A stretch of 64,000 nt of DNA from a virus. Lineage: Duplodnaviria > Caudoviricetes. The translations under genes were made by a program, and so were the position numbers. The notes below the pieces were generated by a model, which was not told the DNA's origin, made no database searches, and saw only the letters and a list, made by a program, of their open reading frames with translations. Shown here piece by piece: positions 38,494-64,000 of this stretch (positions are counted from its first letter, which is position 1; the number at the start of each line of letters is the position of its first letter). Location of the stretch: IMG/VR virus record IMGVR_UViG_3300046004_001808, positions 7,802 to 71,801 of that record; one strand, given 5' to 3'.

Positions 38494-39072
38494 TTATAAT
38501 TGTGTTATTATCACAGATACAGATGGACTTGTCGGTCTAGATGGATTACTTCTTATTGGTATCGCATATAACTTAACATCAGCAACATCTGAAGACCACA
38601 CTAACTCAACATTATCACCTGATTCCACTGTTAAAAGATAAGTCCATGCCGCAATTAATGGAGATGATATTGGTGTACCAGCAAGTACTACGTCACCGGT
38701 ACTGTCAATAATTGGATTCCCATTTTGATTTAACCATATACTAATAGTGTATGCACCAGCACCTGTTGTTTTTATTAATTGAGATGAAAAGGAGAAATTA
38801 TAAGTTCCACCAGATAAAAATGTAAATTTACTACCATCAACAACTGTAACTCCCTCAGAATCAATTACAGTATCTGCACTCATTATATATGATTGAGATG
38901 TGGTTCCTGTAATAAATTGGTCAACAGTTGATAAAAATTGACCATGAGCGGCATCTCCGGAAGTATTTCCTGCTTTAACTTTATATGTTGTACCACCGTC
39001 AGATACCACAAATAAAGTGTCTGTTGTTATTCCGGTTATTTCGGGCAATAATGCTATTGGTAAATCAGGCAT
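38494..39072 (-). CDS. Virion appendage protein with a C1q/BclA-C-terminal-like beta-sandwich
   Basis: N-terminal MPDLPIALLP...TTYKVK module; C-terminal GTYNFSFSSQL...ISIWL..NG...GDNVELVW...PSVSVIITQL. Confidence 0.6.
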   Translation of the reverse strand: MPDLPIALLPEITGITTDTLFVVSDGGTTYKVKAGNTSGDAAHGQFLSTVDQFITGTTSQSYIMSADTVIDSEGVTVVDGSKFTFLSGGTYNFSFSSQLIKTTGAGAYTISIWLNQNGNPIIDSTGDVVLAGTPISSPLIAAWTYLLTVESGDNVELVWSSDVADVKLYAIPIRSNPSRPTSPSVSVIITQL

Positions 39073-39096
39073 GTTTTTTTTTTATTAATAAATAGT

Positions 39097-39933
39097 TTAT
39101 GTTATAATTATTTTACTTAAATCATCTTGTAAAAGATAAAATAAATCATCTTGTAAAAGATATGATATAGATGGTGTTGATGTAGGTGTTTGAGTAGGTG
39201 TAGGTGTTTCTGTTGGCGTCGGAGTAGAAGTTTCAGTTGGCGTCGGAGTAGAAGTTTCAGTTGGCGTCGGAGTAGAAGTTTCAGTTGGCGTCGGCGTAGA
39301 AGTTTCAGTTGGCGTCGGCGTAGGTGTTTCAGTTGGCGTCGGAGTAGAAGTTTCAGTTGGCGTCGGCGTAGGTGTTTCAGTTTGAGTAGGCGTAGGAGAA
39401 CTTGTTGTTGTTGTGGTTGTATGATTAATTGTTGTTGTAGTTGTAGTATGATTAATTGTGGTAGTCGTTGTGGTACAAGGACAACATTCTGTAGTTGTTG
39501 TTGTAGTATAAGGACCATTGATACAACAAGGGAATTCTGATACGTAACAACTATCATAAACTAAATCATCAGCAATAAAAGAATCTTGTACATTTATAAA
39601 TAAATCTTCGCGTATTGGTAATATAAGAACTCCATCGGAATTTCTTAACATAAATTGACCAGCGTATCTACCAACTCTATTAGTATCTCTTGGAGTAAAC
39701 TGATAATATATGTAATATTCAGGACCAGCATTCAAGTCAACAAAAGTTTTTTCAACAAACCCTGCAGGTCTTGAACTTATTTTTGGAATACCGGTTTCTA
39801 CATCAACCATTGAGAAGAAAATGGCAGATTCTTCAATCATATCCATAAACTTATTATAGTCGCTTCTTCCGTCTTTAACCACTTGTAATTTTAATACCGG
39901 TAAGGTTGCGTTTTTCTTAATAAAAAAATCCAT
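39097..39933 (-). CDS. BppU-N-like virion protein with a mucin-like Thr/Pro stalk
   Basis: MDFFIKKNATLPVLK...YQF...DT...GRY.GQF...LILP, then CCPCTTTTTT, (TPTPTETS)n and a terminal YLLQDDLFYLLQDD. Confidence 0.65.
   Translation of the reverse strand: MDFFIKKNATLPVLKLQVVKDGRSDYNKFMDMIEESAIFFSMVDVETGIPKISSRPAGFVEKTFVDLNAGPEYYIYYQFTPRDTNRVGRYAGQFMLRNSDGVLILPIREDLFINVQDSFIADDLVYDSCYVSEFPCCINGPYTTTTTTECCPCTTTTTTINHTTTTTTINHTTTTTTSSPTPTQTETPTPTPTETSTPTPTETPTPTPTETSTPTPTETSTPTPTETSTPTPTETSTPTPTETPTPTQTPTSTPSISYLLQDDLFYLLQDDLSKIIIT
39190..39460. repeat. Coding tandem repeats (24-bp TPTPTETS units; duplicated TTTTTTINH)
   Basis: About 7 copies of TTTCAGTTGGCGTCGG(A/C)GTAG(AA/GT)G. Confidence 0.9.
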
Positions 39934-39979
39934 CTATTGTTTTTATTTATAAATACTTTGCTTTACAAAAATAAACAAA

Positions 39980-41662
39980 TTAACTTTCTTTTCTTAATGA
40001 ACCATCATAATGTTCAAATCTATCGTGTTCTGTTGGAGTTAATAGTAATAAGCCAGGTTTAATGTTACCCATGACAGTTTCTTGGTAAACATATGACATT
40101 AAAGTTTGTTCAAAAGGATGAGACCATTTTGTTTCTAAAAAACATTTATAGTTTCCTTCTCTACCAACAACAATTGGCCAATTACACACATAGACCTCAC
40201 CAGTTGCATATGGAAGTCCTTTATAAGACTTAATGTTCTCAAATTTTGTTTTAGGTGAGTTTGCGTCTAATCCATGTTCAGGCAATTTAGGGTTATTAGG
40301 CCAATGTCTTTGTCTGAAATCTTGTGGAACATTATACCAACTCCATTGAGTACTATTATCACCAAAAAACTCGGTAAAATTAAGTTTTAAAAAATCAAAA
40401 TTTTCTTTTTTAATTATTTCTAAAGATTTGTTATATAAATTTGGTACCCATCTATTAAACCCATTTTTACAAGTCTCATTTTTTTTAGGATAAAATGCCA
40501 TATCATCCTCAAACCAAAAATAATAATCGTGATTTGTTTTATCAAAATGGTCAGCAACAAAAATACGACCACCAACTATACCAATGTTATCTTTTTTAAT
40601 GTGTTCAAACCCATATTGTTCACATAGTTCAATATATCTTGGGGTTGTTGTTAAATCAGTTGAATTATTTAATAAATATTTTTTAGGTTTTTCTATAAAA
40701 TCTTTGTCATAATCTAACATAGATTGTATTAACACTTCTAATTGTTTAGGTGAGTTAAATGTTATAACATATAACCCAACATTATCAGTACTTGGTTGTG
40801 TTTTATTATTTTGTATAAAATCTTTTGTGTATTTTTTTAACTCTTCAAAGAACGGCCAAACTAAACCATTACCCTCAATTTCAAATCTATATATTAAATC
40901 TTTATGTTTATAAGAAAGTATTGTAAATAAACATTCGTCGGCACCCATTAACCCTTCTTTTAACGTATCGTGCATTACTGAATAATAATAGTCATTCATT
41001 TGGTGAATGTTATCTTTACTCCCACCAAAAAAACCGCCTCGACACACATAACTAACGTAATCGGTATTACAATAACGAGCCATATCCTTTCTTTCAAATC
41101 CATGAATCTCTACATTACCATCATAAGGATATGATATCTGAATAAATTTATTATTGTTAAATCGAACATAATTTTCCAAATTATCTAATACATTATCGTG
41201 ACTAAAATAACCTCGATTAACCGTATTAGTTAATCCACCATCAACCCAAAAGAAATATTCACTATTAAATGGATTCACAATTGCGGAATCATTTAACATA
41301 AAAAATTTAGTAAACATCATTGGGTTATAATATTTTAACCCGGCTTGAGGAGATTCAGATAACCATCCTGCAAAATTTTTCCAACTATCTTGGATTCTAA
41401 TTTTTTGAATATCTTCAAAAAAAGGATTCCAAACTTCAAAATCCTCAACATTCTTAATAAATATTTTAGTAGGTTTATCGCCTCTAATTTTTAATACTTC
41501 TTCTTCTAATTCTTGGGGAATCCAAATACACATTTGAACATTTGTTTCTAACATTTCAAAAAACTTTGTTTTGTAATTTGAAAAATCTCTTTTACCCCAA
41601 CCATCAAGATTACCGCGACCTAAATCCCAAAGACCGGTAACTATTGTCACATTACTATTCAT
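39980..41662 (-). CDS. HtrL/YibB-family glycosyltransferase-like domain fused to a GT2-like domain
   Basis: VTIVTGLWDLGR...KFFML...NPFNSEYFFWVDGG...GGFFGG...GADE; second domain LYVITFN...YFWFEDD. Confidence 0.72.
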   Translation of the reverse strand: MNSNVTIVTGLWDLGRGNLDGWGKRDFSNYKTKFFEMLETNVQMCIWIPQELEEEVLKIRGDKPTKIFIKNVEDFEVWNPFFEDIQKIRIQDSWKNFAGWLSESPQAGLKYYNPMMFTKFFMLNDSAIVNPFNSEYFFWVDGGLTNTVNRGYFSHDNVLDNLENYVRFNNNKFIQISYPYDGNVEIHGFERKDMARYCNTDYVSYVCRGGFFGGSKDNIHQMNDYYYSVMHDTLKEGLMGADECLFTILSYKHKDLIYRFEIEGNGLVWPFFEELKKYTKDFIQNNKTQPSTDNVGLYVITFNSPKQLEVLIQSMLDYDKDFIEKPKKYLLNNSTDLTTTPRYIELCEQYGFEHIKKDNIGIVGGRIFVADHFDKTNHDYYFWFEDDMAFYPKKNETCKNGFNRWVPNLYNKSLEIIKKENFDFLKLNFTEFFGDNSTQWSWYNVPQDFRQRHWPNNPKLPEHGLDANSPKTKFENIKSYKGLPYATGEVYVCNWPIVVGREGNYKCFLETKWSHPFEQTLMSYVYQETVMGNIKPGLLLLTPTEHDRFEHYDGSLRKES

Positions 41663-41663
41663 A

Positions 41664-44186
41664 TTATTTTTTTCTAATTATACTGGTATAACTCCATTCA
41701 GGTTTAAGTTTAAAAATTTCACACGATTCAATATTTTTTTCAAGATAATCACATTCTTCATCTGTCATATAATCTGAAACTAGTTTACCTGTTTTATTAA
41801 ACATTTCTAACATATCAAGTGTTATCGTATTTTTTTCAGATTTCCATATTGAATTAACATCATTCTTTACACTAACACTTGTATGTAAATCTTCTAATAC
41901 GTACATACCACCACTTTTTATACTTTTAAATAATTTAGCTAAAACAACTTGTTGGTCTTTCATTGCGTGACTTCCATCGTCAATAAATAAATCTATATCC
42001 ACATTATCATTTGAAAACTCGATTAAAGTATTACCAACATTAACATTAAATTCTAATAATTTAACTCGATTAAAATCATCAATATTAGCCCTATTCATTT
42101 CAAAATCAACACCTATTATTTCCGCATTAGTGAAAAATTCTCTCCATATGTTAATTGATTGTCCTTCATGAACACCTAATTCAACAACTTTTTTTGCAGA
42201 TTCTTTGATTTTATCAAATTCAAGTTGATAAACTTTATCAAAAAAATCATGTCCATAATGTTTATCTGTCGTATATTTTTCTGCTAAACCACTTAATTTT
42301 GAATAATCATAATTTTCGTTTATATTAAAAATTTTATTATGAATCTTATCTATTGTTCTATTTTTAATACTACCATACGCATACGCATGAAAAATAAAAT
42401 TATTATCATTATATTTATTCCAATTAAAACTTCTATTTGAAATAATTTTCATTTTACTAACATACTCACCTCTATCTTTATATAAATGAGTTAATGCGGT
42501 TTGGTCCATCCATAATCTGTTAGAATAAAATCCTTCATGATTTAAATCATGTTCACCAACTTCAGGTCTTAATTCACAATCAATAGGTTTTAGGGTTTTA
42601 CAACAAAAAGCCCAATCATTAAGAAATTTTTTACCCCATTCATTATTTTTTATTAAAAATACTCCAGCATTCATTAGACTATGAGTGCTTTCATCTAATG
42701 AGGCAATAAAATTATAATCTTTGTCAATAAATTCTTCAATTCTAATATTAAAATCAGATATTATAGCATCCGTATCTAAAAATAGTATATATTCAGGGTC
42801 AAAATTTTCAATAACGTCTAATATTAACTTTGGTTTGTACCAAGTAGGTGCAGCACCATTTATGTAATCCGTTATTGTTTGATTTGATTTTTCACAAAAA
42901 TATCCATATCCATTTTCATCACAATATTTCTTATTTATTTTTTCAGCAAATGGTCCATGAGTTAAATTACTTGTGTAATATTGTGCGATGTAAATTTTTT
43001 TAATTTTATTTGTTTTTAAAATTCTAATAATTAATCCTTTTTCGTCCGGTTGGATATATTGAGCTTGAGTATATTCTTTAAAATTCACATCATTTAAAAT
43101 TTCATATTCATAATTTAAATTTTTAATCATTTTTAAAATAATATTATAAGTATTTTCATTAGTTATAACACCATCATTTAAACTAAAAAAGATATTAATT
43201 TCACCGTCTTTTACTATTGTTTTAAGTAAATTATTAAATGTGTTTTTAATTTTTAGGTCATGGGGATTTTTGAAATTAAAAACACATAAATTTTGTATAA
43301 CTTCATCACCATATGTTATTGTTCTATCATATATATCAGATATACTTCTAGCATAACCACCATAGTATTCCCAATTATTTTTATCTCGGTCTAACCCATA
43401 CCAAGCACCTGTCTTACCCTCTGTACCACTAACTCTATTAGTATTTAATTCAATACCTGAAGACCATTCATAATTTAGAATAACTTTTCTATTAGTTTTT
43501 AAATTATTATAGTAATTACTAATAATAAAATCACAATAATACATTCGTTTACCCGTTGAATAATGAATTGTTAGATTTTTTTCACCTAAATTATAAAAAG
43601 CAGACATAGTGTCTATTATATGAAATTTAACTTCCGGTATTTTTGAAAAGTGTTGCATTAATGTGGCATCTTCCAAATGATTAGTTTCATCATGTATATT
43701 TAAAATTTCTTCACATATTTTTTTACTGAAGAATATTCCTCCTCCACCACCTTGTCCGGACCATATAATGTCTTTATCAATAATTTCGTTAAAATATTTC
43801 TCTAAAACAAATGAATTAACATAGGTACCATCGTCAACTCTTAAAATATAATCAAATTCTCTATTTTTTAATAACCATGTTATAGCCCCTTGAAGTTTTT
43901 TAACCATATTAGATGGTTTTTTTTGATGATGTAAATAATAATAGTCGTATGTGTCGGTTTCGGTTAAATGTAAAATTTGATTTTTTTCATCAAAAGATAC
44001 TTCCGGATTGTCTCCATCAAAAAAAATAACTTCAATATTTTTATCCTTTAATTTAGATACCCAAGTATCCATACATGGTAATTTTCTAGTTAAATCAGCT
44101 CTATCTGATTGTATTGGGTCAAATGGTATATATAACTTTTCACTCATATAATTTTTTGAAGTGTAGGCCAAGACAATTAATTTCAT
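41664..44186 (-). CDS. Multidomain GT31-like + GT34-like glycosyltransferase + SAM-dependent sugar O-methyltransferase
   Basis: FDYILRVDDGTYV; WYKPKLI...ILFLDTDAII...MNAGVFLIKN...DQTAL; TDK..H...VVELGV..GQS...IDDGSH...GGMYVLEDLHTS. Confidence 0.78.
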   Translation of the reverse strand: MKLIVLAYTSKNYMSEKLYIPFDPIQSDRADLTRKLPCMDTWVSKLKDKNIEVIFFDGDNPEVSFDEKNQILHLTETDTYDYYYLHHQKKPSNMVKKLQGAITWLLKNREFDYILRVDDGTYVNSFVLEKYFNEIIDKDIIWSGQGGGGGIFFSKKICEEILNIHDETNHLEDATLMQHFSKIPEVKFHIIDTMSAFYNLGEKNLTIHYSTGKRMYYCDFIISNYYNNLKTNRKVILNYEWSSGIELNTNRVSGTEGKTGAWYGLDRDKNNWEYYGGYARSISDIYDRTITYGDEVIQNLCVFNFKNPHDLKIKNTFNNLLKTIVKDGEINIFFSLNDGVITNENTYNIILKMIKNLNYEYEILNDVNFKEYTQAQYIQPDEKGLIIRILKTNKIKKIYIAQYYTSNLTHGPFAEKINKKYCDENGYGYFCEKSNQTITDYINGAAPTWYKPKLILDVIENFDPEYILFLDTDAIISDFNIRIEEFIDKDYNFIASLDESTHSLMNAGVFLIKNNEWGKKFLNDWAFCCKTLKPIDCELRPEVGEHDLNHEGFYSNRLWMDQTALTHLYKDRGEYVSKMKIISNRSFNWNKYNDNNFIFHAYAYGSIKNRTIDKIHNKIFNINENYDYSKLSGLAEKYTTDKHYGHDFFDKVYQLEFDKIKESAKKVVELGVHEGQSINIWREFFTNAEIIGVDFEMNRANIDDFNRVKLLEFNVNVGNTLIEFSNDNVDIDLFIDDGSHAMKDQQVVLAKLFKSIKSGGMYVLEDLHTSVSVKNDVNSIWKSEKNTITLDMLEMFNKTGKLVSDYMTDEECDYLEKNIESCEIFKLKPEWSYTSIIRKK

Positions 44187-44860
44187 TTTTTATAATATTT
44201 TTTTATAATTTTATGCGGATTAGTATTTAAATTTTTAATGTCTAAATCATTGTAAAATTTATCAATATGGTTTTCAAATAAAATAGTTTCATTATCTTCT
44301 AACATTTCAATTTGATAATCACTTATTTTATTTATTTCAATTAAATAATTAACAATATCAACTACTTTAATTTTGTTACCTAAAGTAACGTTAATTTTAC
44401 CATTTATTTTTTTATTAATTAAAAAATCAACAATTTTTGGTAAATCTTCAACATCTATTAAATCTCTATAAGTACCGTTTTTTATTTGTATAACTTTTTT
44501 ATTTAATAATGAATTATACATAAATGGTACTAATTGTTTTGTGTTTTTTGTTCTACCAATAATATTAGGTAATCTTAAAATCAAAAAATTATTTGAATTA
44601 TTTTCAATATATGATTCAATAAATAATTTATGCATAACATAATTTGTGTAATCATACCTTAACACACTTAACGTACTAAAATATATTATCAAATTGTTCT
44701 GATTTTTTTTTAAAACTTGTTTTAGTAAATCATATTCTTTTTTATATTTTAAAATATCATTTTCTGTTGAATCCGCAACCCCTGAAGCAAAAACACATAC
44801 AGATTTAAAATTATAATTTTTAAAAGATTCTGCAATCATCCCATCCCCAATTATGTCCAT
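44183..44860 (-). CDS. NAD-dependent epimerase/dehydratase-like protein (short)
   Basis: IIGDGMIA, FASGV, IYFST, YVMHK (YxxxK), LRLPNIIG and RDLIDVED. Confidence 0.78.
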   Translation of the reverse strand: MDIIGDGMIAESFKNYNFKSVCVFASGVADSTENDILKYKKEYDLLKQVLKKNQNNLIIYFSTLSVLRYDYTNYVMHKLFIESYIENNSNNFLILRLPNIIGRTKNTKQLVPFMYNSLLNKKVIQIKNGTYRDLIDVEDLPKIVDFLINKKINGKINVTLGNKIKVVDIVNYLIEINKISDYQIEMLEDNETILFENHIDKFYNDLDIKNLNTNPHKIIKKYYKK

Positions 44861-44863
44861 ATT

Positions 44864-46111
44864 TTATAAATTACCAGTTAATCTATCACACCATCCTTTT
44901 GATGTGCTATAAGGCCATACAACCCAATATTTTGGTTTAGATGTTGTTTGGAAATCTCTCCAAACTTTACAATACCCATCAGGGTCTTTCATCATACCGT
45001 TTATTTCATTGATGTCAGCATCTTTTCTATAAAGAGTTTCATCTTTTTCATCGTGGAATGCAACAACCCAAAATTCGTAATCTTTTTCCGGAACTTGTTT
45101 AAATGAGATATCAATACAATGTTTGAAAATACTAGCGAAACTTGCCAACCATTCTTCTTCAGTCTCAAATATAGTAGGATTTGGTGCGTATTTTTTATCT
45201 AAAGTATATTGTTGAACAGCTCTATTTGAAAATTTAAGACCTGAATAAATTTCATAATCTTTTAATGTTCTTTCAGTTCCAAATCCATACTTACTAAAAT
45301 CCATATTAACTTCTTCACCATCCATTCCAAAAAGTTGTCTATTCTTTTTGTGAGATAACTCATTCTTTTTACCCCACTCTTTATCGTCATCCCATTGTTT
45401 TACCCTACCTTTACGAGTATACTCATGCCAAATAACTGTTTTATGTGGGTGGAATAAATCATATCCGTGAGTAAATGCTCTAACTGCTATGGAAATTTCT
45501 TCACCATGAAAATAAAACTCAGGGTCGTGTTGAACCTCAACACTAAATTGACCTAATGTGAACGCCATGTGAGCAGAATAAAAACGAGAAGTAATTGGTT
45601 GTTTAAGTTTTTCCCACCCCGGAATTGTTTCAGGTAAGAAGAAGACAGCACCTTCTGGTATAAATCTGTCAAACGACATTCTCCATGGGTCTCTAACTCT
45701 CCCTGCCGGGTCATTATCAGGGTCAAATGAAGAAACATATCCTGTTAATAAAGGTTTGTTAAATCCTTTCTTTTGAAGTTGTTTAATCATTTTGATTAAT
45801 GTATCGTCCCAATCTTTTTCAAATCTCATATGAGAATCTATTTGAAGAGTATATTCCTCACCATCGTATAATTGTTGTACTTGATTTCTTGCCCAACAAA
45901 CACCTTTAGCGTCAGAATATAAAACATCCTTAACTCTAAATCGTTTGTCTTTTTTAAATTTCTCTAAATTATCAAACCCATCTTCAGGGTGATATTGGCG
46001 ACATATACCTATTCTTAAGTTCTTAGGTCTTTTAGCATTTTCCAACATACTATCTAATGTTGGAATAAGTTGGGGGTCACGATAGGAAGCTATCTGTACA
46101 AATATTTTCAT
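44864..46111 (-). CDS. GT60-family polypeptide GlcNAc-transferase (Skp1 Gnt1 / trypanosome mucin OGNT-like)
   Basis: IFVQIASYRDP, AKGVCWAR, YTLQIDSHMRF..DWD and FHGEEISIAVRAFTHGYDLFHP...WHEY. Confidence 0.85.
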   Translation of the reverse strand: MKIFVQIASYRDPQLIPTLDSMLENAKRPKNLRIGICRQYHPEDGFDNLEKFKKDKRFRVKDVLYSDAKGVCWARNQVQQLYDGEEYTLQIDSHMRFEKDWDDTLIKMIKQLQKKGFNKPLLTGYVSSFDPDNDPAGRVRDPWRMSFDRFIPEGAVFFLPETIPGWEKLKQPITSRFYSAHMAFTLGQFSVEVQHDPEFYFHGEEISIAVRAFTHGYDLFHPHKTVIWHEYTRKGRVKQWDDDKEWGKKNELSHKKNRQLFGMDGEEVNMDFSKYGFGTERTLKDYEIYSGLKFSNRAVQQYTLDKKYAPNPTIFETEEEWLASFASIFKHCIDISFKQVPEKDYEFWVVAFHDEKDETLYRKDADINEINGMMKDPDGYCKVWRDFQTTSKPKYWVVWPYSTSKGWCDRLTGNL

Positions 46112-46424: not shown

Positions 46425-48272
46425 TTATTCTGGACATGTTGTACCTTCATTACATATCCATAATAATACACCAGTAGGGTCAGTTGTTAATAACATGTTA
46501 TAAGTGCTTATAATTTGACTTGTTACAAATGGAGTTTCTAATGATGGGTCTGTATATAGATAACCACCTATAGTTGGTTGCTCATTTATTGGAAGATAAA
46601 CAATTTGGATAGTTGGAGTTCCATCAAGATAACAAACACCAGTATTACAATATGCACTACCAAGCTCTACAGTAAATTGATATGATGTCGGAGTCGCAGT
46701 TGATGTTGGTGTTCCCGTATTTGTTGGTGTATTTGTTGGAGTTTGAGTTGCGGTATTTGTTGGTGTTAATGTTGGTGTATTAGTTGGCGTATTAGTTGGC
46801 GTTAATGTAGGCGTGTTTGTTGGAGTAGGTGTTGGTGGAAGACATTGAGTACAACCACTATATTGACCTTGACCAAAATAATTTATTAAATTTAATGTGT
46901 TCGTACCACCCCAAGTAATGAGAGGGTAAATTGAACCAGCAATTCCTTTAACATTCCAACAATTCCCTAAATTATCAATAACAGTATAAGAATACCAAGT
47001 AGAAAAAGGTCCACTAGTATAAGGTAAATATTCAATCGGTAATACCATTTCAGCGGTTGGTGATGCAGTAGGGTTAGAACAAGGGGCAAGTGACGCTATA
47101 AATGTTGTTTGTGTACTTGTTGGTGTTAATGTTGGTGTAGAAGTTAATGTAGGTGTATTAGTTGGTGTTAATGTTGGAGTATTTGTTGGAGTTTGAGTTG
47201 CGGTATTTGTTGGAGTTAATGTTGGTGTTGGAGTATTTGTTGGAGTTTGAGTTGCGGTATTTGTTGGAGTTAATGTTGGTGTTGGAGTATTTGTTGGAGT
47301 TTGAGTTGCGGTATTTGTTGGAGTTAATGTTGGTGTTGGAGTATTTGTTGGCGTTTGAGTTGCGGTATTTGTTGGAGTTAATGTTGGTGTTGGAGTATTT
47401 GTTGGCGTTTCTGTAGGTGTATTAGTTGGAGTTAATGTTGGTGTAGAAGTTAATGTAGGTGTGTTAGTTGGAGTATTTGTTGGCGTTTCTGTAGGTATAT
47501 TAGTTGGTGTTAATGTTGGCGTAGAAGTTAATGTAGGTGTATTAGTTGGTGTTAATGTTGGCGTAGAAGTTAATGTAGGCGTATTAGTTGGAGTTAATGT
47601 TGGCGTAGAAGTTAATGTAGGTGTATTAGTTGGAGTTAATGTTGGCGTAGATGTTAATGTTGGCGTGTTAGTTGGCGTTAATGTTGGTGTTTGCGTATTT
47701 GTTGGAGTTGATGTTGGTGTAGATGTTAATGTAGGTGTAATAGTCGGAGTATTTGTTGGAGTTGATGTTGGAGTTGGCGTCGGAGTCTCACTTGGTATTG
47801 GTACACAAGTATTATCAATACATATCTCATTAATAATTATGTTTACCCCTACCTCAGCCGATGGTAATCTACCACAATAATATAAGATAGTCCCTGATTG
47901 AATAACGCTGTTTAACACAACGTTATTACATAGGGTTAAACTAAAGTTTAAAGCCCCCGAAGTTGTATTTTCAAATGATATACAATTACAAACAACAACC
48001 ATTGTTGGGGTCGGAGTTGCTGTTGTTGTTGGTGTCGGAGTTGGTGTTCCCGGACAACTTTGTAAAATAAATTCATCACAACCAATTGAATCGGTAACAA
48101 CGACTAAAACTTGGTTAGCCCCATATAGTTCTATTGGAATAGTCAATAAAAGTGTTGGAGGAACAGAAACAACGCCGGTCGCAACCACATAACAATACGT
48201 TAATGTTAAATCACATATTGATATATCAAATGGTGAGTGTCCGTTTAAACTGGTTATTTCTATTACTTGCAT
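46425..48272 (-). CDS. Mucin-like Thr/Pro-repeat virion protein with Cys-containing globular domains
   Basis: About 230 aa of continuous ([12 protein letters not shown]) repeats between small Cys-rich domains. Start moved to the ATG at 48272 (MQVIEITS), which follows a TATTTATT motif. Confidence 0.8.
47110..47790. repeat. Coding tandem repeats (54-bp and 42-bp units)
   Basis: [18 protein letters not shown] about x4 and [14 protein letters not shown] about x4-5; the periodicity also shows in the antisense ORFs. Confidence 0.9.
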
Positions 48273-48375
48273 TACAATAAATATAGATAGAATTATTTTA
48301 CCATAAATACTTAACAATTTTAATATTTACTATGGAACTTTATTAGTAATTTATTATTTTTGTAATAAAAAAAAT

Positions 48376-55310: not shown

Positions 55311-56186
55311 ATGAATGTAATTTTTCAAATAGATGGTGGACTAGGTAAAAGTATCTTGGGAACCGCAGTATTAAAAGCAATAAAAAAACAATACAGTAAG
55401 GCAAATATAATTGTAGTTACTAGTTATCCGGACGTTTTTGTTAACAACCCAAATGTTAACAAAGTTTTGACTCACGAAACAATAAGTGGTGTGTATGAAA
55501 AATACATTCTAAATAAAGATGCAAAAGTGTTTGTATCTGACCCATATGCAACTTCTGATTATATCACTGAAGAAAAACATCTAATTCAATTATGGTGTGA
55601 AATGTATGGTCTAAATTACAACGGTGAAAAACCTGAATTATTTATTAGTAAAGCCGAAAGACAATACTTTGAAGGGTTCTATAAGTTAGATAAACCAATT
55701 ATGGTTATTCAACCTCATGGGGGAGCATTTAATCAACCATTAAAATATAGTTGGACAAGAGATATCCCTCAACCAATTATGCAAGACATTATAAATCATT
55801 TTGCAAATGATTATGCTATCTTACATGTTAAACGAGAAGACCAAATTATTTATGAAAATACGTTTCAAGCGTTAGATTCATTTAGAAGTATTGCAGTATT
55901 ATTGAGTATGTCAACAAAAAGATTGTTAATTGATAGTAGTGTGATGCACATCGCAACTGCGTTAAATTTACCATCAGTGGTGACTTGGGTTGGGACAAAT
56001 CCAAAAATGTTTGGTTATGATATTCATAATAATATTGTGGCTAATGAACCAACCAAAACACCTGATTTAAATCACCCACATTATTCTAAATATCTATTAT
56101 TCCAAGATATTAGCTCCATACCTTATAACGACCTGTATGAAGTTTTTGATACTCAAAAAATTATAGATGCAATTAATAAACAATAA
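55311..56186 (+). CDS. GT9-like (heptosyltransferase-fold) glycosyltransferase
   Basis: GGLGK.I..TAVLKAIKKQY...NNPNV...IDSSVMHIATALNLPSVVTW. Confidence 0.8.
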   Translation: MNVIFQIDGGLGKSILGTAVLKAIKKQYSKANIIVVTSYPDVFVNNPNVNKVLTHETISGVYEKYILNKDAKVFVSDPYATSDYITEEKHLIQLWCEMYGLNYNGEKPELFISKAERQYFEGFYKLDKPIMVIQPHGGAFNQPLKYSWTRDIPQPIMQDIINHFANDYAILHVKREDQIIYENTFQALDSFRSIAVLLSMSTKRLLIDSSVMHIATALNLPSVVTWVGTNPKMFGYDIHNNIVANEPTKTPDLNHPHYSKYLLFQDISSIPYNDLYEVFDTQKIIDAINKQ

Positions 56187-56187: not shown

Positions 56188-56213
56188 AAAAAACCCTCAT
56201 ATGAGGGTTTTTT
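56188..56213. terminator. Bidirectional intrinsic terminator
   Basis: Perfect palindrome AAAAAACCCTCATATGAGGGTTTTTT between convergent genes. Confidence 0.88.
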
Positions 56214-57547
56214 TAATTTAAATTAAGTTCGTTTTTTTTAATAATCCAATATCCATTGTCAAATATTTTTGCGTTAGGTATGTTAACATTTTCATAACAA
56301 TTACCTCCAATATACCCATCATCTTTAATTTTATCATAATATTGATTAATTAAAGGTAATATATCTTCGTTTTTTCTATTATTAATAAATAAAAATGAAA
56401 TGTCATTAAAATTATCAACCACATCTTCAGGTTTTTTTTCAATATGAGATATATTTTTAAAGTGATAGGTATTACTGTGAAACCCAATTCTAACATCTTC
56501 CCAAGTAACTTCGTTATTAACATTAAATTCATCTTCTCCAAATAAAGGGTCTATTGAATAGATATTAGTAAATAACCCACAACTACCAAAAAAGAAAGTT
56601 AATTCCCCAAGATGAGGATAAAGTTCAATCATGGTCTCATTTTCACCTAACTGAGTTAAAAGAAATCCTAATAAACCGGAAATCCCAAAAAAATTAGATT
56701 TATTAAATTTTTGTATTCCAAATTTTGGTTTATCTAAAACCATTTCAAAATATCTATCAGTAATGTCTTTAGGCTGTTTTAAATAATTTACAATTTTTTT
56801 ATTTAAAACATTTCCATCTTGGTCAAATGAAAGCCCCACACGTCCGCTATTTTCTCTAAATTCATTATAGTAGGTATCAGAATCCGCATTTTCAGGATTA
56901 AAACCATCACTTATTTGTTTAAATAAATTATTTTTTAAAGTGAAAGAATTATGAGTATTATAAAATTGTTCTAAATAAAGGTCCGAGGCATATTTGATTG
57001 GATAATATTCGTCTGACATAGTTTTTATCGTCTCTCGTGTTGCAATATAAGCATGAGCTCCATTGTAATTTGTATTAAATCTTGGGATTACTAAATGTTT
57101 CCCCACATTAATCCCCGTTTGTCCTCCGGTTTTCTTACCTAAATGAATTAAATCCCAATCATATTGTTGGATTTCATTAAATATACTTTCATATTGTGGT
57201 GTAAAACTCCCATTCTCTAAAACAGGGTTTGTTAGATAAACATCGTCCTCTAAAAACAATGCGGTCTCAACACCATCTATTAAGGCTTGTTCCCATGCCT
57301 TTTTATGTGATAATGCACAAGCAAAAACACCCATAGTTACTTTACCCCAAGGGTCTAAAAATGATTTATTCAGTTTTTTTTCAGTAATCAATTGTTCAAC
57401 AGATAATAACTTACCGTCAACAGCTTCAATAAATGTCAAATCAAGACCCGGAAGAGTTTTAATAAGTGCTTCTTTTCTATCGGGTCTACGCTTTAAATTA
57501 ATCACATATATTTTATCAAAACCTAATGTTGATGTTTTATTAATCAT
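56213..57547 (-). CDS. GT25-family glycosyltransferase with a degenerate C-terminal methyltransferase-like domain
   Basis: FDKIYVINLKRRPDRK, EAVDG, ACALSH, LFLEDDV and AHAY; C-terminal MIEL...YSIDP...KDDGYIGG. Confidence 0.82.
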   Translation of the reverse strand: MINKTSTLGFDKIYVINLKRRPDRKEALIKTLPGLDLTFIEAVDGKLLSVEQLITEKKLNKSFLDPWGKVTMGVFACALSHKKAWEQALIDGVETALFLEDDVYLTNPVLENGSFTPQYESIFNEIQQYDWDLIHLGKKTGGQTGINVGKHLVIPRFNTNYNGAHAYIATRETIKTMSDEYYPIKYASDLYLEQFYNTHNSFTLKNNLFKQISDGFNPENADSDTYYNEFRENSGRVGLSFDQDGNVLNKKIVNYLKQPKDITDRYFEMVLDKPKFGIQKFNKSNFFGISGLLGFLLTQLGENETMIELYPHLGELTFFFGSCGLFTNIYSIDPLFGEDEFNVNNEVTWEDVRIGFHSNTYHFKNISHIEKKPEDVVDNFNDISFLFINNRKNEDILPLINQYYDKIKDDGYIGGNCYENVNIPNAKIFDNGYWIIKKNELNLN

Positions 57548-58578
57548 AATGAATTAAGGAATTTTTTATATTGTTCATAATTATTTTCATTATTTAATTC
57601 TTTAATATCCTCTAATGAGGTTTTTAATATGTCTTTCATATCATCTATTGAAGTTTTATTAATTACTTCCAACATATTAGACATTGAATCTACTTTATCA
57701 TTAACAATAAATGGATATGATTTAAAAAATTGCGATGTTCCCGAACTTTTACTTATTAAGGGAACAGACCCATTTAACAAACTAAAAAAGGTATAATAAT
57801 CGTATGTGTCATAAAGAGACAGATTAGAATATATATAATTTTCTTTAAAAAATTTCTCATCATTTTTTAATCGACCATTAAATTTAATTCTATTATTTTT
57901 TGAAGTTAAATGATTTACAATCATCTCATTTAAAATATCATCTCTCCCATGCGTTCCATACATATTCAAAACATATTTGGGGTTAAACTCAATTAGATTT
58001 AATAAATCAAACATCCCCGATTGGTTTGATGGGTATCCGTTAAAACCTATATTTTTATTGGGAATTAAATTATTAAAATTTATATTGATTTGGTCTTTAT
58101 CCCCTAAAGGTGGTGAAATAACTGAAAATGGTTTAGGGTTATTAAGTTTGTAGTATTTTTGAAATAAATTAACATCGTTGTCGTTAAAAAAGACAAATCC
58201 ATCGGCACAATTTTCATATAAAAATAATTGTCGATTAATAGGGAGACCATTAAAATTATTAATCATTCCTTTAATATTAAACTCAATAAATTCATCATTA
58301 AGTTCTTTATTATGGTGTGGAATCGTATCAATTATGAATATTTTAGGTATTTGGATTTCATTGAAGAACTCTTTATAAAACTCAACACTGCTAACTTTAT
58401 AATCCATAAAGATTAACGCATGAGTATAAGTTTTATTTATTTCATAAGTAATATTTGGAGAAATAAAATTGTAAGTATCATCTTGGGATATAGATAGAGA
58501 ATTTAAAATTTTATTAATGGTAATCATTTCATTAATATATCCCTTATTTTGGTAATTGGTTATGGCACATAACTTCAT
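57544..58578 (-). CDS. Divergent GT4-like (GT-B) glycosyltransferase
   Basis: IGFNG...GM..L...RIKFNG...SLYDTYDY..FFSLLNGSVPLISKSSG. Confidence 0.55.
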   Translation of the reverse strand: MKLCAITNYQNKGYINEMITINKILNSLSISQDDTYNFISPNITYEINKTYTHALIFMDYKVSSVEFYKEFFNEIQIPKIFIIDTIPHHNKELNDEFIEFNIKGMINNFNGLPINRQLFLYENCADGFVFFNDNDVNLFQKYYKLNNPKPFSVISPPLGDKDQININFNNLIPNKNIGFNGYPSNQSGMFDLLNLIEFNPKYVLNMYGTHGRDDILNEMIVNHLTSKNNRIKFNGRLKNDEKFFKENYIYSNLSLYDTYDYYTFFSLLNGSVPLISKSSGTSQFFKSYPFIVNDKVDSMSNMLEVINKTSIDDMKDILKTSLEDIKELNNENNYEQYKKFLNSL

Positions 58579-58666: not shown

Positions 58667-61600
58667 TTATTTATTATTTGGTTTAAGTATTTCAATACCA
58701 TTCCAATTTTCAATGGCATCTTTATCCTTTCTTGTTCCAATTACAAGAACATTATATCGAATATCCTTGTCTGCAAATATATTAATATTTTCTTCAATAT
58801 CATCAATAACCCCATATGCAATTCCAAAACCATTAAAAGGACTCACCCATACTTGAGTATTTTTATTCAAATACTTATAATAATCAGGTAACTTAATAAT
58901 AGAGGTCCCATTTACAACATCAACAACATATCTATATATATTATCTCCTTCTGTAGGTGATTCAACAAATGAATGTTGTAAGTATTTCGTTTCTGTTTTA
59001 TTTGGGTCAGGGTGGTTAATTCTAAATGTTCCGGATGTTTTAGATAATGCCTGAACAAATGTTGTATTACTAGCACTTGATGTTAAATTAGAACCAATTA
59101 TGTGAGAATTATAGTGAGTAACAGTATTTGACGCTCCCCCCAAAATAGATGAACAATTACCAGAAGCAGTATTACCACAACCACCACCAATTGTTGACTG
59201 AGTCCCTGTTGCACAGTTTTTAAAACCACCCGTAATTGTTGAAGTTTGACCAGAAGCAATATTACAACGACCACCTCCAATTATAGACCACGCCGAACTT
59301 GCGGCAATAACATTTAATTCACCACCTCCAATAAATGAAGAACATACTGAGATAGTATTTCCCGAACCACCAGCAATTGTTGAAAAACAACCATCATTTT
59401 GGATAGTATTACAACACCCTCCAGCAATTGTTGAACAACGAGAATTACCACATGTAAGATTAAATCTACCTCCTCCAATCGTCGAAGAATGACCACACGC
59501 GTGATTAAAATAACCACCACCAACTGTTGCACACCCATCAGATGCCCTATTACATTTACCACCCATGACGGATGTATATGAATTTAACGCAACATTTACC
59601 GCACCTCCTCCAATAAATCCGGAACAACAAGAAACACAGTTTGCTCTACCTCCTGCAATTGTTCCATGACCCGCACTTGTAATTCTATTGTTTTGTCCTC
59701 CACCAATAGAACTATATTCACCACAAGTATAATTATTGTAACCACCAGCAATTGTTGATGCTTTACTATTAGTAACTCCGTAGTTTCCTTTTACAAAATT
59801 ACCACGACCACCACCAATTGTTCCAAAACAATGATTACCAGCACTTTTGTTAGTACATCCTCCACCAATTGTTGAGAAAAGACTACAAGCAAAATTTGAC
59901 TTTCCTCCACCGACTGTTGAATAACAACTAATTGAACAATTTAAATAACCCCCACCAATTGTTGAGAAAATAGATGTAGAAGTAGTGTTCTTACAACCTC
60001 CACCAATAAATGTGAAATTACCACAAGCACAATTTAATAACCCACCACCAATTGTTGAAAAAATAGCTGTAGAAGTTTTGTTATTACAACCTCCACCAAT
60101 AAATGTGAAATTACCACAAGCACAATTTAATACCCCACCACCAATTGTTGAATAACAACCAGAAGCACTATTGGAATTACCACCACCAACAAAAGAAGCA
60201 GTATTAGAAGCAAGATTATTTGACCCTCCCGCAATTGTTGATACAATACCAGATGCAGTGTTAGCAGAACCGCCACCAATTGTTGAAAAATTACCAGAAG
60301 AAATACCATATCTTCCACCACCGATAAACGAAAAACAACCAAAACTTTTATTTGCAAAACCACCACCGATTGTTGCAAAATTACATCCATTAGGGGCGGT
60401 AGTTGTATTTACTAATCTTGGATTATTTCCATAAGTAAACGTTTGGTTTGTATATAAACAAGTATAATAACTAGAATAAACAACATTAGTGATTTGTCCT
60501 ACGTAAGTGGTATTATTATAATTAGATGAAATAAAATTATCTCCAATAGTAAATGATGATGTTTGGTCGCCATAAATAACAAAACAATTAGAATTAACAC
60601 AATATGATTTAAATATAGTTTCATTAGATGTTATGTTTAAATTACCACCACCAATAAAACCGGATTGAGATTTATTTAAATTTACCTTACCACCACCAAT
60701 TGTTGAACTAACATTAGTAGCAATATTATTTTTACCACCAGCAATTGTTGAATAATTCCCTCCAGAAGTATTATTTCGACCACTACCAATAAATGAACTA
60801 TCTCCAGAAGCAGTATTTTGACCACCACCAGAAATTGTAGAATAAAAATCAGAAGCAGTATTTTGACCACCACCAGAAATTGTAGAACGATTACCACAAG
60901 CAGTATTAGAAGTACCACCACCTATTGTTGAACTTGTGGAAGCAGAAAAGATTAAATTACCACAACCACCACCAATTGTCGCATATACTCCTCCATTACA
61001 GTTTTTAAAACCACCCGTAATTGTTGAAGTTTGACCAGAAGCAATATTACAACGACCACCTCCAATTATAGACCACGCCGAACTTGCGGCAATAACATTT
61101 AATTCACCACCTCCAATAAATGAAGAACATACTGAGATAGTATTTCCCGAACCACCAGCAATTGTTGAAAAATAACCATTAGTTTGTATAAGATTACAAC
61201 ACCCTCCAGCAATTGTTGAACAACGAGAATTACCACATATAAGATTAAATCTACCTCCTCCAATTGTCGAAGAATGACCAGCCGCTTGATTACAATAACC
61301 ACCACCAACTGTTGCATACCCATCAGACGCCCTATTACATTTACCACCCATAATTGATGTGTAAAAATTTGACGCAACATTTACCGCACCTCCTCCAATA
61401 AATCCGGAACAACAAGAAACACAGTTTCCTCTACCTCCTGCAATTGTTCCATGGCAAGCAGAAGTCCACGTACAATTGGATTGACCACCACCAATTGTTG
61501 AATGATGAGCCGTAGGTGCCGTAGAATTGCATTCACCACCACCAATGAATGAACAAGTACCCTGTGCCAAATTACATTTTCCTCCACCAATTGTTGTAAA

Positions 61601-64000
61601 TGCATATGCCGCAGTATTACCACAACCACCACCAATAAATGCACAATCACCTAAAACAGAAACAAGATTTTTTGACCCTCCACCAACTGTTGAGGTATTA
61701 CCGGAAGCAGTATTACTATTTCCACCGCCAACTATCGAATTATCACCACCAGCAGTATTAATACTTCCACCACCAATTGTTGAACGAATACCAGAAGCCG
61801 TATTTTTATAACCACCACCAATTGTTGAACCAATACAACAAATTTTATTACAATAACCTCCACCAATAGATGAAGATGTGGATGTAGAAATGATTAGATT
61901 ATTACAACCACCCGCGATTGTAGAGTATATTGCTAAATTACAGTTTCTAAATCCACCACCAATTGTTGATAATCTACCAGCATTACAACAAACAATTGTT
62001 CCTGATAAAATCCCTGTTGATGTTGTAAATGTTCCACCTGAAGTATTATGTCCAATACCACCACCAATTGTTACACCTAAAGAACCACATTCGTCAGTTG
62101 CAGATTGAATTATGTTTCTATGTCCACCACCAATAAATGACATTCTAGTACTTGTTCTATTACAATATCCACCAGATATTGTTGAGGTATTTCCAGAAGT
62201 ATTATTTCTAAATCCCCCACCAATAAACCCACAACGAGCATTGTTTATATTACAAGAACCACCAACAACTGTTGAATCATAACAAGAAGAGGTGTTAAAA
62301 CGACCCCCACCAACAAATGAAAAACATCCCGATGCTGTATTTCCTGAACCCCCACCAACTGTTGCACGTCCATTAGAAGCAGTATTATCTAAACCACCCC
62401 CTACTGTTGAGGAATAACAAGAAGAAACATTACATTGTCCTCCACCAACGGTTGACCGACTACCAGAAGCAGTATTCCATACTCCTCCTCCAATTGTTGA
62501 ATAAGCACCTCTAGAACAATTTAATGACCCTCCACCAATTGTTGCTCCTGTTATAGAAGCATAATTACAATATCCACCAGCAATTGTTGAATACTTAGCC
62601 GTTGCACGGTTTCTAAATCCACCACCTATGGTTGATAATCTACCACCTTCAAAACAAGTAATTACTCCTGATAAAATACCTGTTGATGTTGTAAATGTCC
62701 CTCCGGTTGTGTTATGTCCAATACCCCCACCAATAGTTGCTCCTAAAGAACAACATTCGTTTGGTGTTGATAGAAGTATATTTCTTTGACCACCTCCAAT
62801 TGTTGAGAATCTAGAATTTAAAATATTACGACATCCTCCATTAATTATTGAATAACTACCACGAGATGAGTTAAAACTACCACCACCAATAAATGTATAA
62901 TCACCTATGGCACAGTTTCTAAAACCACCACCAATGGTTGATAATTTACCTGCATCACAACAAGCAACTGGTCCGGTTAAAATTCCTGTAGTCGCATTAA
63001 ATGTTCCCCCTGAAGTATTATGTCCAATACCTCCACCGATTGTTACACCTAAAGAATTACATTCGTTTGTTAATGATTGAATTATATTTCTTTGACCACC
63101 ACCAATAAATGAGAATCTAGCATTTGTCGTATTATAAGAACCACCAACTATTGATGAACAAGTACCACTAATCGAGTTTTGACAACCACCAACAATTGCT
63201 GAATTATCACAAAAAGCGCTATTATATTTACCACCACCAATAAACGAATAACCACCTGGGCTATTATTACAACAACCACCAACAATTGCTGAATAAGGAC
63301 CTGTTGATGTATTATTAAAACCACCTAAAGAAGCTGAATAATTTCCTATCGAAGTATTTGAAACACCACATCTAACAGATGAATTCTTACCCGCACCTAA
63401 AACAATAACCGCTGATGAACCAATATTTACACCCGATGAACCACTTGTTCCTGAAGTACCGCTAGTTCCGGTTGTTCCTGAAGTACCACTTGTACCTCCG
63501 GTACCATTCGTTCCTGAAGTACCACTAGCACCATTAACACCACTTGTTCCTGAAGTTCCGCTAGTTCCTGAAGTACCACTTGTACCTCCGGTACCATTCG
63601 TTCCTGAAGTACCGCTAGTTCCTGATGTACCGCTAGTTCCGGTTGTTCCGCTAGTTCCTGAAGTACCACTTGTACCTCCGGTACCATTAGTCCCTGATGT
63701 TCCGCTAGTTCCTGTTGTTCCTGAAGTTCCTCTAGTACCTGAAGTTCCCGATGTACCGGTTGTTCCTGATGTTCCGCTTGTACCTCCGGTACCATTCGTA
63801 CCTGATGTTCCTGATGTACCGCTAGTTCCGGTTGTTCCTGATGTTCCGCTTGTACCACTTGTACCTCCGGTACCATTCGTTCCTGAAGTACCACTTGTAC
63901 CTCCGGTACCATTCGTTCCTGATGTTCCGCTAGTTCCTGTTGTTCCTGAAGTACCACTTGTACCTCCGGTACCATTAGTTCCTGATGTTCCTGATGTTCC
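58667..64000 (-). CDS. Very long fibre/adhesin: collagen-like (G-T-x)n stalk, Cys/Gly-rich STIGGGxxN beta-repeats and a C-terminal chaperone-like domain (5' end outside the window)
   Basis: Hand translation shows the frame of the 62143 ORF stays open upstream to 64000 (at least 1777 aa). C-terminal FRINHPDP...LQHSFVESP...LPDY is typical of fibre C-terminal chaperone domains. Confidence 0.85.
59213..61453. repeat. ~456-bp internal direct duplication (59213-59668 and 60998-61453)
   Basis: In-frame offset of 1785 bp; the first ~175 bp are identical and the rest carry scattered substitutions. Confidence 0.9.
63430..64000 (-). repeat. Collagen-like Gly-X-Y repeat without proline ([12 protein letters not shown])
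   Basis: Minus strand reads GGA ACA TCA GGA ACA TCA GGA ACT AAT GGT ACC GGA... over about 63 triplets. Confidence 0.9.

Follow-up and report, generated by a model that had tools for sequence, protein, structure and literature searches.

A stretch of phage DNA of 64,000 nucleotides (nt), positions 7802-71801 of the IMG/VR record IMGVR_UViG_3300046004_001808 and referred to below as the window, carries from its position 38494 to its end an island in which glycosyltransferase (GT), methyltransferase and sulfotransferase domains are encoded among Thr/Ser-rich proteins. Our analysis suggests that this island probably belongs to a phage-encoded system which O-glycosylates the phage's own particle proteins. 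The proposal builds on the families to which the enzymes belong, on their solubility, on the way the candidate acceptors are built, and on synteny and co-occurrence among relatives, all of which were observed directly. Judged by their sequences, the two best-assigned enzymes, a GT60 protein and a TibC-like domain, are from families whose studied members glycosylate proteins, and both of these candidate initiators are encoded in the one island. A more far-reaching picture, in which sheath and fibres would bear a sulfated, O-methylated, mucin- or proteoglycan-like coat started by two independent initiators and elaborated by transferases swapped like those of an O-antigen locus, is more doubtful and is put forward tentatively. 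The candidate initiators and acceptors are the following:

44864..46111, minus strand: GT60-family soluble glycosyltransferase, candidate initiator (PF11397, E = 3.2e-71, 241 bits against a gathering score of 21)
48376..52719, plus strand: multi-enzyme protein of 1447 residues, consisting of an FkbM methyltransferase, a GT32 domain, an unassigned stretch, a GT4 domain and a TibC-like domain
51718..52710, plus strand: TibC/Aah-type (BAHT) protein O-glycosyltransferase domain, residues 1115-1445 of the 1447-residue protein (TIGR04414, 4rap)
25313..28699, minus strand: tail sheath, 1128 residues (PHROG tail sheath, E = 1.7e-55)
39097..39933, minus strand: Thr-rich protein, 278 residues, 24% Thr, Ig-like N-domain followed by repeats (27 Ser or Thr in the densest 40 residues)
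46425..48317, minus strand: beads-on-a-string protein with Ser/Thr tracts, 630 residues counted from a TTG, 29% Thr
58667..64000, minus strand: giant fibre, at least 1777 residues, N-terminus past the contig end (Pfam Collagen, 63 bits)

Enzyme domains were called with Pfam and NCBIfam hidden Markov models (HMMs). The match of the GT60 protein covers positions 2-43 and 95-350 of the PF11397 profile in two stretches, and the D-S-H triad was invariant in all six aligned sequences. CAZy family GT60, of polypeptide alpha-GlcNAc-transferases from protists, consists of the Trypanosoma cruzi mucin enzyme and Gnt1, the latter acting on a hydroxyproline of Skp1 in Dictyostelium and Toxoplasma. Prolyl hydroxylase (PF13640) was detected in none of the five clade contigs searched, which makes Thr a likelier acceptor than hydroxyproline; a Skp1-type hydroxyproline acceptor, considered as the leading idea, was dropped on this ground. 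The T. cruzi enzyme starts mucin O-glycans on Thr, as stated in the available part of PMC3769586.

The neighbourhood of the GT60 gene was compared in 80 related loci (73-96% identical), 74 of which had enough upstream DNA. The immediate upstream neighbour on the same strand was an open reading frame (ORF) with a Ser/Thr tract in 56 of these 74 loci, a number which, given the similarity of the loci, reflects conserved synteny and not independent events. For comparison, such tracts were present in 16 of the 242 ORFs of at least 150 residues in the relative G001, a 322-kb contig of 100% completeness that is collinear with the window (protein identity 60-98%). The upstream neighbours varied in size between 259 and 3315 residues, and a tract-containing ORF was located somewhere in the GT60 flanks in 78 of the 80 loci. 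Among other phages, homologues of 46-48% identity occur in the Xanthomonas/Stenotrophomonas jumbo phages XacN1, Xoo-sp13, CM1 and RAS14. The surroundings of the XacN1 gene are similar (polymerase, GT60, GT9 and baseplate genes), and the single Pro/Thr tract seen in RAS14 belongs to a giant ORF at a distance of 9 kb from GT60.

Twelve bacterial GT60 loci were also inspected, of which three were too short. In six of the nine usable loci (Jiulongibacter, Arcticibacterium, a Bacteroidia metagenome-assembled genome (MAG) and three Gemmatimonadota, two of the last being weaker cases by the threshold used) a Thr/Pro/Ser-rich ORF adjoins the GT60 gene; the other three have no Thr/Pro-rich neighbour. 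The Gemmatimonadota proteins encoded directly upstream of GT60 (L192:6993-7886, L193:7212-7952 and L195:6591-7475) contain a PqqD domain (Pfam, 30-38 bits), an 'RRD' stretch resembling a twin-arginine (TAT) signal and a Thr/Pro/Ser-rich tail. PqqD domains are peptide-substrate recognition modules, and a Thr/Pro tract fused to one would probably be a substrate of the GT60 enzyme encoded next to it.

The TibC-like domain scored 276.5 bits on TIGR04414, the model of autotransporter strand-loop-strand O-heptosyltransferases (equivalog cut-off 200), over profile positions 27-373 of 374, and matched the TibC structure (PDB 4rap) with E = 1.1e-48. The available part of PMC4358343 names as key residues of TibC the catalytic base Asp110, the sugar-binding Arg286, Trp305, Thr226 and Lys230, and the iron-finger Cys339, Cys342, Cys358 and Cys370. 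When the corresponding positions were read by hand off the 4rap alignment, the phage domain was found to keep Asp110, Thr226, Lys230, Trp305 and all four cysteines, to have Thr in place of Arg286, and to have Ser, as in AAH, at the stereoselectivity position Pro300. On this alignment it appears to be a true member of the BAHT family.

Potential acceptors were sought by screening the 41 main ORFs of the window for tracts with at least 24 Ser or Thr in 40 residues. The three proteins at 39097, 46425 and 58667, which the first-pass annotation had described as Thr/Ser-saturated, are real long ORFs and are indeed interleaved with GT domains; tandem DNA arrays underlie their Ser/Thr and Gly-X-Y tracts. 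Besides these, the tail sheath was the sole ORF of the remaining 38 to pass the threshold. Its tract (29 of 40 residues Ser or Thr; residues ~300-345, nt ~27665-27802) lies in an insertion, and sheath insertions face outward, as in T4 gp18. Sheath ORFs were compared in 78 related loci, 60 of which contained the full-length ORF; with a tract defined as at least 18 Ser or Thr in 30 residues, 26 of the 60 had a poly-Thr tract at the same site, in the conserved layout 'poly-T ... N/D-P-C ... poly-T'. The sheath occurs in two forms in these relatives (loci L107-L184), one of ~1110-1130 residues with the poly-Thr tract and one of ~1200-1300 residues in which the poly-Thr site holds an additional globular segment ('...SSNCASFY...').

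The protein at 39097 starts with an Ig domain of ~120 residues (nt 39571-39933; AlphaFold pLDDT 82); poly-Thr and (T/S/E)PT repeats come after it (nt 39148-39510). The three best VIA fold matches of the Ig domain were the 80alpha baseplate (Z 8.3), TP901-1 BppU (Z 8.2) and the N-terminal domain of the latter, 3uh8 (Z 7.7), the BppU-type scores barely exceeding those of generic Ig folds (7.7). In the Atlas the domain was linked as a lead to a BppU_N cluster (TM 0.65/0.80), Pfam gave no BppU_N match (PF10651) up to E 5, and Foldseek returned generic Ig matches only (E > 1e-3). A BppU-like baseplate anchor is thus a lead suggested by the modelled fold. The N-domain is kept in 71 of the 80 related loci, and the C-terminal parts differ greatly in length; fibres are typically organised in this way, the anchor being constant and the distal part variable. 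In the protein at 46425, whose true start is probably the ATG at 48272, long TPT(N/L/S) tracts lie between four small Cys-containing domains, and the first 171 residues are 43% identical to a G001 protein.

The giant fibre (13% Thr, 22% Gly) contains a proline-free collagen-like region of 64 uninterrupted Gly-X-Y triplets, 39 of which are GTS (nt 63419-64000), the lack of proline setting it apart from canonical collagen, and a body of ~1,450 residues (~nt 59081-63418) made up of Gly-rich repeats spaced mostly 14-17 residues apart. The body matched the UspA1 head (PDB 3pr7) with E = 3.4e-21, which indicates a UspA1-like beta-roll. No membrane-anchor family was detected with Pfam or NCBIfam at the C-terminus, which forms an unassigned domain; the fibre resembles the head of a trimeric autotransporter adhesin (TAA; UspA1/YadA) but is not a TAA. 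In G001 and the related contig G004, relatives of the giant fibre are encoded at a distance of 5-6 kb from TibC. Across its 322 kb G001 encodes ~14 Thr/Pro-linker or collagen-like proteins with Fib_succ_major, SprB, DUF285, BspA-type leucine-rich repeat (LRR) and LamG domains, one of them with a domain matching the baseplate wedge-tail fibre connector PHROG. From their domains the Thr/Pro-linker proteins look like adhesin-type appendages. PHROG 'tail fiber' matches of the G001 fibres were not counted as homology since they fall in collagen-like, low-complexity parts.

The association between TibC and the candidate acceptors was surveyed in 44 contigs, namely that of the window, five large ones and a selection from the other 75 loci of 38 that measure at least 50 kb. 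Ten of these have an intact TibC domain, in varied fusions (open frames of 397-1462 residues). A further contig contains a degraded TibC-like gene (G024:C1:1343-2128, L036; 39 bits) that is interrupted by three stop codons (TAG once, TAA twice) and represents a copy of the cassette in decay. The UspA1-like fibre was present in seven contigs, a coding pattern of five consecutive G-[ST]-[ST] triplets in nine and the sulfotransferase in seven, every one of which was TibC-positive. Both the fibre (2 x 2 table 6/4/1/33, Fisher p ~2e-4) and the G-[ST]-[ST] pattern (7/3/2/32, p ~1e-4) were associated with TibC, with p values that overstate the evidence because the genes are adjacent on partial contigs and the TibC-positive contigs are mostly of one subclade. 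A third reason is that in three of the four TibC-positive, fibre-negative contigs TibC lies less than 8 kb from the contig end. The safest summary of these comparisons is that TibC, GT9, APS kinase, sulfotransferase and fibre appear to form one accessory cassette found in some relatives only; it is absent from others, including G002 (91% complete).

Four phage records of three lineages contain TibC homologues. The FkbM-TibC fusion of Microcystis phage Mel-JY01 is flanked by a collagen-like frame of 1016 residues with GTS/GSS repeats, by a 'structural protein' rich in Ser and by smaller collagen-like frames, and in the 735-kb phage LR756501 a collagen-like ORF is located 3.6 kb from the TibC gene. 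The UspA1-like body had no match in the Mel-JY01, LR756501, LR756504, XacN1 and RAS14 loci, and the feature common to the lineages is the G-[ST]-[ST] repeat and not the beta-roll. Two side observations were made on these records. The 1016-residue open frame of Mel-JY01 (PP395634.1, L102:2-3049, plus strand) has 149 consecutive Gly-X-Y triplets, and the record annotates instead a minus-strand hypothetical protein of 519 residues (739-2298) together with the last 178 codons of the plus-strand frame; the annotation of the collagen-like gene is probably wrong, and the gene may continue across the start of the record. In LR756504.1 (445181-470227, L105; 26% GC) ORFs of at least 200 residues are scarce around TibC and separated by long gaps, which might reflect either numerous small genes or the reassignment of a stop codon.

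The other genes of the island are listed here (APS, adenosine phosphosulfate; PAPS, phosphoadenosine phosphosulfate; SAM, S-adenosylmethionine):

53401..54219, plus strand: sulfotransferase (PF13469, 79.9 bits; weak NoeE-like match)
54239..54691, plus strand: APS kinase, which makes PAPS (PF01583, 59.9 bits; P-loop present)
54669..55094, plus strand: small nucleotidyltransferase, 141 residues, HxGH motif (PF01467, 27.6 bits)
39980..41662, minus strand: two-domain enzyme, HtrL/YibB (PF09612, 55.7 bits) with a C-terminal half of GT-A fold and an EDD motif
41664..44186, minus strand: three-part enzyme with 400 N-terminal residues without match, a GT34 domain (58.3 bits) and a weak SAM-methyltransferase
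44183..44860, minus strand: short epimerase/dehydratase-like protein, 225 residues (PF01370, 28.6 bits)
52719..53396, plus strand: FkbM-family methyltransferase (PF05050, 34.6 bits; TIGR01444, 38.6 bits)
55311..56186, plus strand: GT9-like protein (heptosyltransferase fold), 291 residues (PF01075, 23.3 bits)
56213..57547, minus strand: GT25 domain (PF01755, 74.2 bits) with an unassigned C-terminal half
57544..58578, minus strand: 344-residue protein without family match (Pfam, NCBIfam, PHROGs and PDB sequences all blank)
38494..39072, minus strand: small protein of 192 residues, possibly a fibre or tip, without Pfam or PHROG match

The sulfotransferase and the APS kinase were confirmed as predicted, and the APS kinase has a homologue in G001 (54% identical) that likewise lies beside a sulfotransferase. 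ATP sulfurylase was not found in the window (the small nucleotidyltransferase reaches 16.6 bits on PF01747, cut-off 24.3), so that the host would have to supply APS. The best NCBIfam matches of this nucleotidyltransferase were nicotinamide mononucleotide (NMN) adenylyltransferases, below the cut-off; it has no homologue in G001.

The genes for sugar-, methyl- and sulfate-transferring enzymes span ~20 kb. About a dozen GT domains had been expected, of which nine were recovered: HtrL, GT34, GT60, GT32 (Gly_transf_sug, 38.4 bits), GT4 (Glycos_transf_1, 29.1 bits), TibC, GT9 and GT25 by HMM, and the 'GT2-like' domain as a GT-A fold. The AlphaFold model of this last domain, the C-terminal half of 39980..41662, was built with 20 aligned relatives (pLDDT 80) and shows a GT-A fold with an invariant E-D-D motif. 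Foldseek matched it to LH3, Mimivirus R699, RmlT, PGANT9 and SpsA (E 3e-8 to 1e-6, best 2.8e-8); such matches to a model indicate the fold and not the acceptor. The enzyme is kept in 70 of 80 loci. The three other GT labels, 'GT31-like' for the N-terminus of 41664..44186, 'GT-A' for the middle of 48376..52719 and a second 'GT4-like' for 57544..58578, had no sequence match. The last is also without similarity to the GT4 domain of the 1447-residue protein, and its label is not supported. Searches of Pfam (to E 5), PHROGs, BLASTP and PDB sequences likewise found nothing for the 400 N-terminal residues of 41664..44186, residues 425-780 of the 1447-residue protein and the C-terminal half of the GT25 protein.

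Three or four methyltransferases had been announced; two FkbM domains exceed the cut-off (40.7 and 34.6 bits), the SAM domain of 41664..44186 lies below it (Methyltransf_31, 23.2 bits, cut-off 27), and a fourth was not found in the island. The epimerase is represented by a match confined to the C-terminal part of the profile (positions 139-238 of PF01370). No homologue of 41664..44186 was found in G001, and that of the GT9-like protein is 71% identical and adjoins TibC there. The 192-residue protein was a lead in the Atlas (in one cluster 22% of the members carry a C1q family; score 0.94), and its G001 homologue sits within a fibre gene cluster. All island enzymes are free of any 19-residue segment with a Kyte-Doolittle hydrophobicity above 1.3, and with no transmembrane-like segment among them the island lacks a flippase, a polymerase and a lipid-carrier transferase. 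Such a set of enzymes would suit the glycosylation of soluble acceptors directly in the cytoplasm, and also agrees with peripheral enzymes of the lipopolysaccharide (LPS)-core type.

The window (~31% GC) derives from a 71.8-kb contig of 24% completeness by CheckV. PHROGs matches in it include tail sheath, tail tube, baseplate hub and wedge and, on the replication side, a family-B DNA polymerase, ribonucleotide reductase, DnaB-like helicase and UvsX-like recombinase; a tRNA scan found no tRNAs. Its synteny with the complete G001 identifies the phage as a jumbo myovirus, uncultured and from freshwater, with a full genome of about 300 kb. When the island was compared by megablast, for near-identity, with 50,697 phage records, nothing matched, and the closest polymerases among phage records, those of Salinibacter and Nostoc phages, are just 23-30% identical. 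Related sequences are numerous in environmental data: 393 GT60-encoding stretches in IMG/VR, at least 614 sheath-encoding stretches, and more than 7,400 GT60 relatives in a large public protein collection, the returned ones all being at least 82% identical, so that the number speaks of abundance and not of diversity.

The adhesin-type domains of G001 proteins, together with the location of the nearest bacterial GT60 genes in Cytophagales, hint at a Bacteroidota host. SprB repeats, Fib_succ_major, BspA-type LRR and DUF285 domains, linked by Thr/Pro stretches, were seen in G001 at 112201-114861, 67172-70066 and 271477-276423. The phage may belong or be related to the moraphages, which the available part of PMC12619734 describes as freshwater jumbo phages of 200-307 kb with a family-B polymerase and predicted Bacteroidota hosts; four of their core orthogroups are annotated as glycosyltransferases, whose roles are treated there in general terms.

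Further tail genes were noted away from the island. Two giant ORFs without a PHROG family (8544-15443 and 15762-20777, both minus strand; 2299 and 1671 residues) stand either side of a small baseplate-wedge-like gene, and the 631-residue ORF beside them (20815-22710, minus strand), which has no homologue in G001, suggests a variable tail or baseplate gene. Left of the window (contig bases 1-8500), an ORF of 1216 residues (L003:3-3650, minus strand) with an internal block of about four hydrophobic helices adjoins genes that look baseplate-J-like and lysozyme-like (gp25-like).

Taking these data together, the following scheme can be envisaged. Particle proteins would be glycosylated in the host cytoplasm, without a lipid carrier. 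GT60 would start glycans on Thr of the poly-Thr and TPT tracts in the sheath insertion, the baseplate-anchored protein at 39097 and the beads-on-a-string protein at 46425. The TibC-like domain would start them on Ser or Thr of the Gly-Thr-Ser collagen-like region of the giant fibre, and perhaps on its beta-roll body too. The GT-A, GT34, GT32, GT4, GT9 and GT25 domains would then extend the chains, FkbM-type methyltransferases would O-methylate the sugars, and the sulfotransferase would add sulfate from PAPS supplied by the phage APS kinase. The pairing of enzymes with acceptors, the sugars used, the order of the steps and the presence of glycan on the virion are inferred; elongation, O-methylation and sulfation are suggested by the enzyme families present.

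Several observations weigh against such glycosylation of the particle. In none of these phages, all of them uncultured, has a glycan, a mass shift or a glycopeptide been observed. The replacement of Arg286 by Thr makes the donor sugar of the TibC-like domain uncertain, no autotransporter, the acceptor type of BAHT enzymes, is encoded in the window, and TibC itself modifies Ser, not Thr, in beta-helix loops (available part of PMC4358343). The related contig G003 has TibC and no UspA1-like fibre, and in the 636-kb phage LR756504, which has TibC, no repeat ORF was found within 12 kb.

Other adverse observations bear on the alternative that fares best, namely that the Thr/Pro and Gly-Thr-Ser tracts are unmodified linkers, flexible or stiff, of fibres or adhesins and that the island glycosylates something else, such as host or non-structural phage proteins, the repeat proteins not being substrates of the enzymes. 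The ~14 Thr/Pro-linker or collagen-like proteins of G001 (see above) are built as ordinary multi-domain surface proteins and are spread genome-wide instead of being confined to the island, so that such tracts may be plain linkers; six of them, however, lie inside the 44 kb that hold the island. Tracts were missing from the upstream neighbour of GT60 in 18 of the 74 loci and from ~45 kb around the XacN1 gene (48% identical), and two related contigs, G034 and G039, have the collagen-like G-[ST]-[ST] repeats without TibC. On the other hand, the adjacency of GT60 to Thr/Pro-rich ORFs recurs in Cytophagales, Gemmatimonadota and a Bacteroidia MAG, and that of TibC to G-[ST]-[ST] ORFs in two other phage lineages. 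We regard the linker explanation as rather unlikely.

Still somewhat harder to accept, and in our opinion distinctly unlikely, is that the soluble transferases remodel an envelope glycan of the host (core of LPS or lipooligosaccharide (LOS), capsule or another glycolipid), for example to block superinfection or to keep progeny from adhering to debris, the Thr/Ser-rich proteins being mere neighbours. According to the Pfam descriptions GT9, GT25 and HtrL_YibB are typical of, and best known from, LPS-core loci, which also counts against particle glycosylation, but the characterised members of GT60 act on proteins. The same holds for the TibC family (available part of PMC4358343). LPS-core transferases are likewise soluble or peripheral, so the missing transmembrane segments are compatible with this explanation, and the sole named relative of the sulfotransferase is the Nod-factor sulfotransferase NoeE (weak match); yet TibC and the sulfotransferase are co-inherited with the fibre gene. 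Serotype conversion is listed among possible roles of phage GTs in the available part of PMC12619734, whereas bacterial GT60 genes are paired with Thr/Pro-rich genes, including the PqqD fusions, and the TibC fusion of the cyanophage is flanked by collagen-like genes.

Hypermodification of phage DNA with glycans against restriction is highly improbable. A sulfotransferase with APS kinase, FkbM methyltransferases and a TibC equivalog are not known to take part in DNA modification. DNA glucosylation is the classical activity of phage GTs, and the available part of PMC12619734 cites the modification of DNA with several sugars, but none of the families matched here is a known DNA glycosyltransferase family (hydroxymethylase and base-modification genes were not searched for).

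Glycosylation of the virion by the phage itself, as proposed in the first-pass annotation, is therefore upheld as probable in view of the protein-specific GT families, the soluble enzymes, the tracts on sheath and fibres and the recurring pairings, and is tempered by XacN1, the LPS-type families and the scattered linkers. The linkage between GT and repeat genes expected in relatives was seen for GT60 (56/74) and for TibC and the fibre (6/4/1/33), in counts that are not phylogenetically independent.

The documented cases of phage-encoded virion glycosylation are so far confined to a few mycobacteriophages, in which one or two transferases are involved. Our literature search returned nothing relevant on GT60 or TibC/heptosyltransferase in phages and nothing on glycosylated collagen-like phage tail fibres; what it returned on virion glycosylation concerned mycobacteriophages or mentioned the idea in passing. 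If the proposal is correct, very abundant freshwater phages carry a large, fast-evolving glycan coat on dedicated mucin- and collagen-like tracts, with a bearing on adsorption, particle stability, protease resistance, stickiness to organic matter and grazing. It would affect the interpretation given to 'auxiliary metabolic' sugar genes of viromes, and would provide testable enzyme-substrate pairs outside the known hosts, GT60 with TPT tracts and the TibC-type enzyme with GTS collagen. The sulfated coat, should that doubtful extension hold, would be without precedent on phage particles in two respects, as a sulfated glycoconjugate and as a system with dedicated acceptor tracts.

Among known systems, TibC-TibA and Aah-AIDA-I of E. 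coli (4rap/4rb4) are alike in family, catalytic Asp and iron-finger cysteines, and in having a soluble cytoplasmic enzyme beside a long, repetitive, Gly/Ser-rich adhesin-like protein. They differ in that TibC is a free protein of 406 residues whereas the phage domain is part of a five-part enzyme of 1447 residues, in which Arg286 is replaced by Thr and the donor may not be ADP-heptose; the phage neighbour is a fibre with proline-free collagen and a UspA1-like beta-roll instead of a type Va autotransporter. With the protist GT60 enzymes the phage protein shares PF11397 membership, solubility and Thr-rich mucin-like tracts beside the gene, and it differs in its viral and bacterial setting and in the missing prolyl hydroxylase (0/5 clade contigs). 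In the available part of PMC12619734, GT60, TibC, the sulfotransferase and the repeat proteins of moraphages are not named.

Giant viruses, whose glycosylation does not depend on the host, also encode multi-domain GT-methyltransferase fusions, variable glycan clusters and collagen-like proteins: A064R of chlorovirus PBCV-1 is a GT-GT-methyltransferase fusion, and L230 and R699 glycosylate Mimivirus fibrils and collagen. These, however, are eukaryotic viruses in which other GT families initiate, and we know of no sulfation in their glycosylation. BclA of the Bacillus anthracis exosporium is a surface filament whose Gly-X-Thr collagen-like helix bears O-glycans on Thr; its repeat is GPT, with proline, and its enzymes are different, whereas the repeat of the phage fibre is GTS without proline. 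Closest in concept are the mycobacteriophages, in which, as reportedly described by Freeman et al. in 2023, one or two GTs O-glycosylate the C-termini of capsid or tail-tube subunits. There, as is proposed here from the genes alone, phage-encoded transferases decorate the phage's own structural proteins, but the present island encodes at least nine GT domains together with methyl- and sulfotransferases, and its candidate acceptors are mucin- and collagen-like tracts on sheath and fibres.

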